Shown here piece after piece: positions 1 to 3,000 of a DNA stretch of 64,000 bases (position 1 is its first letter; each line of letters begins with the position of its first letter). The position numbers were made by a program. Source of the stretch: Escherichia coli (GTDB lineage Bacteria; Pseudomonadota; Gammaproteobacteria; Enterobacterales; Enterobacteriaceae); NCBI RefSeq assembly GCF_030384885.1, contig NZ_CP128613.1, one strand, 5' to 3'.

Positions 1-3000
1 TATAAAGGGGATAGCCAACAATAACCCCACGACTCATCTCAATTATCTCGCCCCGACCTGGCTAAGTCCCAGCCCGGTCTCTTGCAGTCGCGTTCACGCC
101 TGAATGACTTCTCCTGAACTTAAGTCTCAGACCTATTTGGCCGGTAATCCCTCTCAAATTTGCTCATTTTGCGTTCCACCTTCCATCACCCTGTAACAGA
201 CCCAGCCATTTTCTGCGTAATTGTGATTTGAGTTGTAAAACACAGATCAATATCTGTGTTTTAAAGATTTGGTGTTGACCTCAAAAATCATGTGGGTAAG
301 TATGATGGCCATCTAAGCAAAACAAAACACAGAGGATGACGCAATGAAAGCACTGGCTCGGTTTGGCAAAGCCTTTGGCGGCTACAAGATGATCGATGTC
401 CCACAACCCATTTGTGGCCCGGAAGATGTGGTGGTTGAAATTAAAGCTGCGGCAATCTGCGGCGCAGACATGAAGCACTACAATGTCGATAGCGGTTCTG
501 ATGAGTTTAACTCTATCCGCGGCCATGAGTTCGCAGGTTGTATTGCGCAGGTTGGTGAAAAAGTCAAAGACTGGAAAGTGGGGCAACGCGTCGTGTCGGA
601 TAACAGCGGTCACGTTTGCGGCGTTTGTCCGGCCTGTGAACAAGGTGATTTTCTGTGTTGTACAGAAAAAGTAAACCTTGGTCTGGATAACAATACGTGG
701 GGCGGTGGTTTTTCCAAATATTGTCTGGTTCCTGGTGAAATTCTCAAAATTCATCGTCATGCGTTGTGGGAAATCCCTGATGGTGTTGATTATGAGGACG
801 CAGCCGTACTTGACCCTATCTGCAATGCCTACAAATCCATCGCGCAGCAATCGAAATTCCTCCCTGGTCAGGATGTAGTCGTCATCGGCACTGGCCCACT
901 CGGGCTGTTCTCCGTACAAATGGCGCGGATTATGGGGGCGGTAAATATCGTCGTCGTTGGTCTACAAGAAGATGTGGCGGTCCGCTTCCCGGTTGCAAAA
1001 GAACTGGGTGCGACGGCTGTAGTAAATGGTTCTACCGAAGATGTGGTGGCGCGCTGCCAGCAAATTTGTGGCAAAGACAATCTGGGACTGGTGATTGAAT
1101 GCTCCGGTGCCAATATCGCATTGAAACAAGCCATCGAAATGCTCCGCCCGAATGGGGAAGTGGTACGCGTTGGCATGGGCTTTAAACCTCTTGATTTCTC
1201 GATTAATGACATTACCGCCTGGAACAAAAGCATCATTGGGCATATGGCCTATGACTCCACCTCATGGCGTAACGCTCTCCGGCTATTAGCCAGCGGCGCT
1301 ATCAAAGTCAAACCGATGATCACGCATCGTATCGGCCTGTCGCAATGGCGCGAAGGGTTTGATGCGATGGTCGATAAAACTGCAATCAAAGTGATCATGA
1401 CTTACGACTTTGATGAATAACTACTCTCCTGAAGGAACGTTATCGCATGGAACAGATAACAAAACCGCATTGTGGTGCACGGCTGGATCGCTTACCGGAT
1501 TGCCGCTGGCATTCGTCAATGTTTGCCATCGTCGCGTTTGGCTTGCTTGTCTGCTGGAGTAATGCCGTTGGTGGCTTGATCCTCGCGCAGCTGAAAGAGT
1601 TGGGCTGGACAGATAATTCCACCACTGCCACATTCTCAGCAATTACGACCGCCGGAATGTTTCTCGGTGCGCTGGTTGGCGGCATCATCGGTGACAAAAC
1701 CGGTCGCAGAAATGCATTCATCCTCTATGAGGCCATTCATATTGCCTCGATGGTTATCGGTGCTTTTTCACCGAATATGGATTTCCTTATTGCCTGCCGT
1801 TTTGTGATGGGCGTTGGGCTGGGAGCTTTACTGGTGACGCTGTTTGCTGGTTTCACCGAATATATGCCCGGTAGAAATCGCGGAACATGGTCCAGTCGGG
1901 TTTCCTTTATTGGCAACTGGTCATATCCGCTCTGTTCATTGATTGCGATGGGACTCACGCCGCTGATTAGTGCAGAGTGGAACTGGCGAGTACAACTGCT
2001 TATCCCTGCAATATTGTCGCTTATCGCTACGGCGCTGGCCTGGCGCTACTTTCCTGAATCCCCGCGCTGGCTGGAATCGCGCGGACGGTATCAGGAAGCC
2101 GAGAAAGTCATGCGGAGTATAGAAGAAGGCGTCATACGCCAGACGGGTAAACCTTTGCCGCCCGTGGTTATTGCTGATGACGGTAAAGCGCCACAAGCGG
2201 TGCCGTATTCAGCCTTACTGACAGGAGTATTACTGAAACGCGTGATATTAGGTTCTTGTGTGCTGATTGCCATGAACGTTGTGCAGTATACACTAATTAA
2301 CTGGTTGCCAACGATATTCATGACCCAGGGGATTAATTTAAAAGACTCGATTGTTTTAAATACCATGAGTATGTTTGGCGCGCCATTTGGTATTTTTATT
2401 GCCATGCTGGTGATGGATAAAATTCCGCGTAAAACAATGGGTGTGGGGCTATTAATCCTGATTGCGGTGCTCGGATATATCTATTCACTGCAAACCAGTA
2501 TGTTGCTCATAACGCTGATTGGTTTCTTCCTGATTACTTTCGTCTATATGTACGTTTGCTATGCCTCGGCAGTGTATGTCCCTGAGATCTGGCCGACAGA
2601 GGCCAAATTACGTGGCTCCGGTCTGGCGAATGCAGTAGGGCGAATCAGTGGTATTGCCGCACCTTATGCCGTTGCAGTGCTGCTCAGTAGTTATGGCGTA
2701 ACGGGAGTCTTTATTCTTCTGGGGGCGGTTTCAATTATTGTCGCAATTGCTATCGCCACCATTGGAATTGAAACCAAAGGTGTCTCCGTTGAAAGTTTAA
2801 GTATTGATGCAGTAGTCAATAAATAATACTGGTGGATTCAAGATGAAAAATTCAAAAGCAATATTGCAGGTGCCGGGCACAATGAAAATTATTTCAGCAG
2901 AAATACCTGTGCCTAAAGAAGATGAAGTTTTGATTAAAGTAGAATATGTCGGTATTTGTGGTTCAGATGTACATGGTTTTGAATCAGGCCCGTTTATTCC

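Follow-up and report, generated by a model that had tools for sequence, protein, structure and literature searches.

The 64,000-nucleotide stretch of Escherichia coli chromosome analyzed here (contig NZ_CP128613.1, assembly GCF_030384885.1; hereafter the window) starts 26 bp past the stop codon of yeaC and carries the sugar-acid operon ydjLKJIHG followed by the regulator gene ydjF. In the 369-bp spacer between yeaC and ydjL (344–1420, plus strand), the first gene of the operon, lies an inverted repeat with 12-nt arms (236–263). Our comparison of related loci points to a 17-bp dyad, ATCTGTG-N3-CACAGAT, repeated every 20–21 bp, as the conserved recognition unit of this region, and as read from the alignments the inverted repeat is the junction of two such units. 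We consider it probable that the repeat belongs to a series of tandem operators bound by YdjF, the DeoR-family protein encoded in the same locus and probably a repressor.

The inverted repeat and the predicted operator units upstream of ydjL

The original prediction, made from the sequence of the window alone, had described a 26-bp perfect palindrome at 237–262 abutting the ydjL promoter. The repeat exists (AAAACACAGAT-CAAT-ATCTGTGTTTT) and is non-random; its arms are perfect, but the spacer CAAT is non-palindromic, so that the element is a perfect inverted repeat and not a palindrome. A repeat finder extended the arms to 12 nt (236–247, TAAAACACAGAT; 252–263, ATCTGTGTTTTA), 100% complementary across the 4-nt spacer. 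The −35-like hexamer TTGACC was present downstream as predicted, at 275–280, 12 nt after the repeat. With up to three mismatches allowed, the full pattern was found once in the window and in none of 100 shuffles. A count of perfect inverted repeats (arms ≥11 nt, spacer ≤10 nt) in the 64 kb gave two, compared with 0.33 expected under a first-order Markov model. The exact 10-mer AAAACACAGA was present in three copies in the window, all within 100 bp.

Three units at the conserved spacing can be laid over the region. Unit B, the main predicted YdjF operator dyad (252–268, ATCTGTG-TTT-TAAAGAT), is centred at 260, about −50 from the predicted transcription start; its symmetry is complete (7/7 positions) in Serratia and Enterobacillus, where it reads ATCTGTGTTTCACAGAT, compared with 6/7 in K-12 and 5/7 in this window. 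Unit A (231–247, AGTTGTA-AAA-CACAGAT, centre 239) is a weak unit 21 bp from unit B and is kept as GTTGTGAAATGCAGAT in most genera. Unit C (272–288, centre 280), a candidate promoter-proximal dyad, covers the −35 hexamer and the promoter spacer at a distance of 20 bp from unit B. Half-site centres are 10 bp apart within one dyad, and the 20–21 bp repeat corresponds to two helical turns. Dyad symmetry of the single units entails that CACAGAT, the right half of unit A, and ATCTGTG, the left half of unit B, face each other as an inverted repeat over a 4-bp junction. In this strain an A at position 242 gives unit A the consensus right half, and the junction is therefore perfect; the same base, by upgrading unit A to a consensus half-site, may retune cooperative YdjF binding here.

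The perfection of the repeat is strain-specific. Among 4326 E. coli genomes carrying the locus, the exact 40-mer 231–270 was found in one and 4239 showed three mismatches; the exact palindrome was present in at most 9. K-12, a B strain, Nissle, and O157:H7 all carry AAAACGCAGAT-CATT-ATCTGTGTTTT, with one arm mismatch; in the extended form (TAAAACGCAGAT-CATT-ATCTGTGTTTTACAGAT) this mismatch lies at 242, and C replaces A at 264. In most other genera of the 23-sequence Enterobacterales alignment the left arm reads TGAAATGCAGAT, with three mismatches to the right arm, and it is unrecognizable in Serratia, Enterobacillus, and Symbiopectobacterium. The search of the 4326 genomes for further copies gave one locus per genome, in line with the expectation that the element is not a dispersed repeat. 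The median of two places per genome reflects the reverse-strand self-match of an imperfect palindrome (37.4 bits for K-12 and 33.7 bits for the window by local BLAST). A dispersed element of the repetitive extragenic palindrome (REP) or bacterial interspersed mosaic element (BIME) kind was rejected, as the repeat is unique in the window and confined to one locus per genome.

The combination TTGACC-17-AAGTAT is predicted to be the ydjL promoter, with a start near 310. TTGA of the −35 hexamer (275–280, plus strand) is invariant in the 23 Enterobacterales, and in the −10 hexamer AAGTAT (298–303, plus strand), which follows after a 17-nt spacer, A298, A299, T301, A302, and T303 are invariant or nearly so.

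Conservation of the dyad in related ydj loci

The comparison set consisted of 23 Enterobacterales loci and about 14 ydjLKJIHG-ydjF loci from Firmicutes, Atopobiaceae, and Megamonas. With YdjL as the query, the complete cluster was recovered from about 20 Enterobacterales species and, in identical gene order, from Lachnospiraceae, Eubacteriaceae, Enterococcus, Anaerococcus, Atopobiaceae, and Megamonas (loci L023–L046; for example L037:9880–18085, L038, L027, and L040). Identity of the non-enterobacterial proteins to those of E. coli was 76–84% for YdjL and 71–83% for YdjI. The sequences suggest that operon, regulator, and operators were transferred jointly, and recently, across phyla among gut bacteria.

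In the 23-sequence alignment no conservation was seen upstream of position 218, where it sets in abruptly; the block reads TATTTGTGATCTgAGTTGTGAAATGCAGATCAATATCTGTGTTTTAAAGATTTnnTGTTGACC and runs from 218 through units A–C to AAnTAT at 298–303. It was present whether yeaC was adjacent, 2 kb away, or absent, and because it is kept with ydjL whatever the position of yeaC, the block belongs to the ydj module. At its upstream edge stands a conserved box, TGTGATTT (222–229, plus strand), which reads TGTGATCT in most genera; TGTGA (222–226) is invariant in the 23 Enterobacterales sequences, and the box is absent from the non-enterobacterial loci.

The motif itself was derived from the non-enterobacterial side. 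K-mer enrichment in Firmicutes upstream regions was uninformative, with A-rich words dominating. A Gibbs sampler run on 10 non-enterobacterial ydjL upstream regions only returned AAAATCTKTGAAAnCAnAGA. Nine of these non-enterobacterial sites, and none from Enterobacterales, went into a matrix, which was applied to both strands of the whole 64-kb window (127,964 positions). The four best matches lay at the ydjF promoter (6729–6747, plus strand, 23.1 bits, rank 1; 6733–6751, minus strand, 15.7 bits, rank 3) and at unit B (253–271, minus strand, 19.7 bits, rank 2; 249–267, plus strand, 15.6 bits, rank 4), and the fifth-best match reached 13.7 bits. Matches on both strands at one centre identify a dyad. 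In the Enterobacterales loci (12–21 kb, both strands) the top match was unit B or the ydjF site in 23 of 23, and unit B itself in most; the motif is thus conserved at orthologous ydjL promoters and specific to these sites.

The other units scored lower in the window. Unit A (228–250) reached 4.2–4.4 bits, at a rank of about 220. Unit C scored 10.1 bits (273–291, minus strand; rank 17 in the window, over a promoter that is itself predicted), and 13–20 bits, within the top four matches, in nine other Enterobacterales loci. These values bear on the 26-bp palindrome as a conserved functional unit, a claim that was not borne out. The conserved dyad is centred at 260 and not at 249.5 and contains only the right arm, while the left arm belongs to the weaker upstream unit (4.2–4.4 bits vs. 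15.6–19.7 bits); judged in this way, the predicted unit is mis-registered by about 10 bp.

Leave-one-out scanning found tandem units 20–21 bp apart in every non-enterobacterial locus. The last unit usually lies over the −35 hexamer, as in the Firmicutes and Atopobiaceae. Half-sites co-vary: TCTTTG is paired with CAAAGA in Lachnospiraceae bacterium L024 and Clostridiaceae bacterium L036, and TCTGTG with CACAGA in Atopobiaceae (L037) and Serratia. In Megamonas (L040:9950–10000) two dyads, ATGTTTACAACAAACAT and ATGTTTAAAATAAACAT, stand 21 bp apart between the ydjL −10 hexamer and the ribosome-binding site; by sequence and placement we read them as a variant operator at a position typical of repressors. 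The non-enterobacterial ydjL promoters are near consensus, for example TTGACT-17-TAAAAT.

The twin dyad at the ydjF promoter

The predicted operator dyad recurs at the promoter of the regulator gene itself (6732–6748, ATCTGTG-ATT-CAAACAG, centre 6740). At both promoters the offset to the −35 hexamer is 22 nt (TCTGTG at 253 to TTGACC at 275; 6733 to TTGAAA at 6755), and the dyad centres lie 84 nt (ydjL) and 82 nt (ydjF) before the start codons. The ydjF dyad is kept as ATCTGTGATTCAGACAT in Enterobacterales and is not evident in most Firmicutes ydjF upstream regions. A counterpart in the register of the predicted palindrome was not present at the ydjF promoter.

A repeated motif before ydjF had also been noted in the original prediction. 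Three copies of CTGTGATT are indeed present, but the middle copy is specific to E. coli; it accounts for the sole nearby matrix match (6716–6734, 5.3 bits). A distal unit (6710–6726, TTCTGTG-AAA-ACTGTGA) precedes the main dyad by 22 bp; conservation was seen for its left half, CCTCTGTTTCTGTG, and the unit scores below 3 bits with the matrix.

The ydjF promoter (6755–6783, plus strand; TTGAAA-17-GATAAT, with TTGAAA at 6755–6760) is listed as constitutive and bound by RNA polymerase with sigma-70 alone (PMC3946193). Between its −10 hexamer and the start codon lies TGATGTAAAAAGATACAGGG (6794–6813), a degenerate LexA site proposed for a peak in LexA chromatin immunoprecipitation on microarrays (ChIP-chip) (PMC3542263).

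YdjF as the candidate regulator

It had been proposed that one regulator controls both the ydjL and the ydjF promoter. The comparative evidence for a shared motif upholds this idea, although the palindrome is not the shared unit. The shared sites make a single regulator likely, and plausibly this is YdjF. The protein (ydjF, 6822–7580, plus strand) carries HTH_DeoR (E = 2.9e-17) and DeoRC (E = 2.4e-49) domains, and an ortholog was found in every locus that extended far enough. Its DeoR type and its co-inheritance with the cluster, without exception among complete loci, make YdjF the natural candidate. It has been listed as a DeoR-family factor not yet characterized (PMC4797297). The recognition helix of YdjF (VTEETIRRDL) is conserved, but as a family-wide signature this was not counted as evidence.

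From the anatomy, conservation, and specificity of the sites and from their co-inheritance with ydjF we infer the following mode of action. Dimers or tetramers of YdjF would bind cooperatively to a single face of the DNA helix, between about −79 and about −22; bound YdjF would block access of RNA polymerase to the −35 hexamer and to its upstream contacts, and ydjLKJIHG would stay silent. The twin dyad would subject ydjF to autoregulation. Effectors of the DeoR family are usually phosphorylated pathway intermediates, which makes the product of the YdjH kinase a candidate inducer; by analogy, this intermediate would release YdjF from its operators.

Repressors make up the majority of the DeoR family. 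Silence of the ydjL promoter in culture and its activity in the mouse gut (PMC6561318), taken with the self-sufficient ydjF promoter, fit repression better than activation. The near-consensus non-enterobacterial promoters, the units placed over −35, and the Megamonas dyads downstream of −10 are further pointers in this direction.

Several points weigh against YdjF repression through this array. Literature searches found no binding, genetic, chromatin immunoprecipitation, or regulon data for YdjF, and every complete locus has an ortholog, so that a natural control lacking ydjF is missing. The units of the window are imperfect (unit B 5/7 symmetric, unit A about 4 bits, unit C about 10 bits), and neither the −35 nor the −10 hexamer is covered by the main dyad, which is centred at about −50. 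Tandem sites abutting −35 are also the layout of some activators, which leaves the sign of regulation uncertain, and the weak ydjL −10 AAGTAT could mean that an activator is needed. A simple consensus scan did not call the ydjL promoter, which together with its start is a prediction; an experimental start site near 310 was not found in the literature search, and the single ydjL start used in published work falls within yeaC, 477 nt upstream.

Alternative readings of the array

YdjF might instead be an inducer-dependent activator that binds the tandem sites and recruits RNA polymerase to a promoter whose −10 is weak. The same family includes FucR, an activator, and in the AraC layout two half-sites 21 bp apart abut −35. 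Here the main dyad near −50 leaves −35 and −10 free, AAGTAT fits the −10 consensus at only 3/6 positions, and silence in culture would equally be expected if an activating signal were missing. Yet the same dyad stands at the same position before ydjF, whose promoter RNA polymerase binds alone; the non-enterobacterial promoters are near consensus, a unit lies over −35 in many loci, the Megamonas dyads are downstream of −10, and repressors prevail in the family. We therefore regard activation as unlikely. The palindrome CACAGAT-N4-ATCTGTG itself, centred at 249.5 (about −60), could be the true dimer site and the dyad at 260 secondary, given that it is perfect here and 11/12 in K-12, that its half-site centres are 11 bp (about one helical turn) apart, and that both arms are conserved in Enterobacteriaceae. 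This we find quite improbable, as the left arm differs at three positions in most genera and cannot be recognized in Enterobacillus, Serratia, and Symbiopectobacterium, where unit B is perfect or nearly so; the left-arm unit scores about 4 bits against 16–20 for unit B, the exact form is rare within E. coli as described above, and at ydjF the 4 nt upstream of ATCTGTG are preceded by a direct CTGTGAT in E. coli and by unrelated sequence elsewhere.

A different protein, such as CRP or another global or sugar regulator, or membership in a dispersed repeat family, would account for the TGTG-rich sequence and for the invariant TGTGA at 222–226 adjoining the array, and ydjF is listed as a CRP target by genomic SELEX (systematic evolution of ligands by exponential enrichment; PMC3105977). 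The palindrome had been judged unlikely to be a CRP site because its arms face the wrong way, and this holds: CACAG...CTGTG is the reverse of TGTGA-N6-TCACA. The box at 222–229 looks like the left half of a CRP site or like an additional half-site; the right half paired with its TGTGA is TTGTA, which matches CRP at 2/5 positions. A CRP site at this box would centre near −81, if transcription starts near 310. The motif and its spacing also occur in Firmicutes, Atopobiaceae, and Megamonas, which to our knowledge lack a CRP of the E. coli type, and the element is single-copy, with no other strong matrix match in the 64 kb. A role of another protein or a repeat family is therefore very unlikely.

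Transcription through the repeat

The repeat might also act as RNA. A plus-strand hairpin could be a weak terminator or insulator against read-through from msrB-yeaC, or a structure in a long leader. The predicted fold has −16.3 kcal/mol and a z-score of −4.7, and 88% of cells in the 23 Enterobacterales pair when G-U is allowed, since the three arm differences are G-U-compatible on the plus strand. The ydjL leader has been taken to begin inside yeaC, 477 nt upstream, and Rho-dependent termination occurs early in ydjL; given this start site, the repeat is transcribed in some RNAs. Pairing was no better than in shuffles, however (88.0 vs. 88.0), with one compensatory cell, and by our own estimate three same-strand wobbles are expected in about 1 of 4–8 cases from transitions alone. 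In the diverged genera the hairpin is lost, and Firmicutes, in which direct tandem repeats are conserved, have nothing equivalent; the hairpin stem is rich in A+T and includes the T run. A scan for terminators found none at the repeat, and Rfam covariance models gave no match in window 1–600 at E-values up to 1. We consider such an RNA role extremely improbable. It is also highly improbable that the repeat doubles as RNA, an operator whose leader or read-through hairpin, with pairing preserved across Enterobacteriaceae by G-U-compatible changes, would tune transcription into the early-ydjL Rho zone.

Term-seq places the 3' end of yeaC at K-12 position 1861655, about window position 31 and about 210 nt upstream of the repeat, and lists no 3' end at 18614xx, the K-12 position of the repeat. 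Two candidates were rejected in this connection. A yeaC terminator was dismissed because none was called, the yeaC 3' end lies about 210 nt upstream, and the block follows ydjL when yeaC is distant or absent; a conserved RNA hairpin was dismissed because pairing did not exceed that of shuffles and no Rfam family matched. The Term-seq 3' end (window about 20–31) follows a hairpin, CCCCTT...AAGGGG, with its left arm outside the window, before position 1; no T run follows this hairpin, so the end may be processed or Rho-dependent.

The third copy of AAAACACAGA (324–333, plus strand) is a lone half-site that adjoins the GAGGA ribosome-binding site and covers about +15 to +24 relative to the predicted start. 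The corresponding sequence is AAACACAAAGG in Citrobacter and TAAACACAGA in K-12. The matrix gives no support for an auxiliary operator at 324–333 (below 3 bits), and conservation across genera is partial; possibly the copy is an auxiliary half-site. It is complementary to 253–262, with 61 nt between, and the two might pair in read-through RNA.

Locus and strain context

The genes follow in the order ydjL, ydjK, ydjJ, ydjI, ydjH, ydjG, and ydjF, all on the plus strand. The strain diverges from K-12 by 2.4% over the region, and promoter positions 228, 242, 250, 264, 271, 272, and 324 differ from K-12. Identity of at least 99% to window 1–1500 was found in just four E. coli genomes. The ydjL region had no match in 1093 of 5426 complete E. 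coli genomes, and the ydj cluster is therefore accessory in this species.

In a promoter-library screen in E. coli the ydjL promoter was among the most consistent gut-induced triggers, its regulation not being known there (PMC6561318). The best in-vitro substrate of the ydj operon is L-glycero-L-galacto-octuluronate, whose natural source is not known (PMC9602453).

Two further repeats were observed in the window. An imperfect direct repeat, TAAGTCCCAGCCC (63–75) and TAAGTCTCAGACC (121–133), was found in the yeaC-ydjL spacer, outside its conserved block, and may be due to chance. The second perfect inverted repeat of the 64 kb (35311–35336, TACCCGCAGAA-ATCA-TTCTGCGGGTA) forms a G+C-rich hairpin 5 nt past the stop codon of the open reading frame 34299–35306 and looks like an ordinary terminator hairpin.

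Significance and comparison with known systems

Tandem operators of local DeoR-type regulators are commonplace as control elements; for the gut-induced and poorly understood ydjL sugar-acid operon, an array of this type had not been described before. The operator consensus ATCTGTG-N3-CACAGAT, in tandem at 20–21 bp, together with two target promoters provides a direct handle on ydj regulation. Assays of YdjF binding and release might serve in screens for the true inducer and hence for the physiological substrate of the pathway. Joint conservation of array, regulator, and operon from Enterobacterales to Firmicutes, Atopobiaceae, and Megamonas points to movement of an entire regulatory cassette between gut bacteria.

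Among the closest known layouts is that of the GlpR operators in the E. coli glp regulon, where a member of the DeoR family binds tandem imperfect dyads about two turns apart as a cooperative oligomer. The ydj array shares with it a local DeoR-type regulator, predicted to respond to a sugar phosphate and to bind cooperatively as an oligomer, and tandem dyads about two helical turns apart near the promoter. It differs in its half-site (ATCTGTG here, TGTTCGAT type for GlpR) and in the position of the main dyad, which lies upstream of −35 and not over the core promoter; binding by YdjF is a prediction. With O1, O2, and OE of E. coli DeoR it has in common palindromic operators, several per promoter region, and repression, the last again as predicted for YdjF. 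The 16-bp DeoR palindromes (TGTTAGAA.TTCTAACA), however, are hundreds of bp apart and looped, whereas the ydj units are contiguous at 20–21 bp.

Two further likenesses concern a CRP site and an intrinsic terminator. Like a CRP site, the array offers a TGTG dyad upstream of a sugar-catabolism promoter, and the centre of the palindrome near −60 resembles class I; unlike a CRP site, its half-sites are reversed and differently spaced, and only the 222–229 box resembles a CRP left half. An intrinsic terminator would share the perfect stem-loop with a 4-nt loop, the Ts that follow, and the location downstream of yeaC, but the stem here is A+T-rich with the T run inside it, no mapped 3' end coincides with it, and the element travels with ydjL and not with yeaC.

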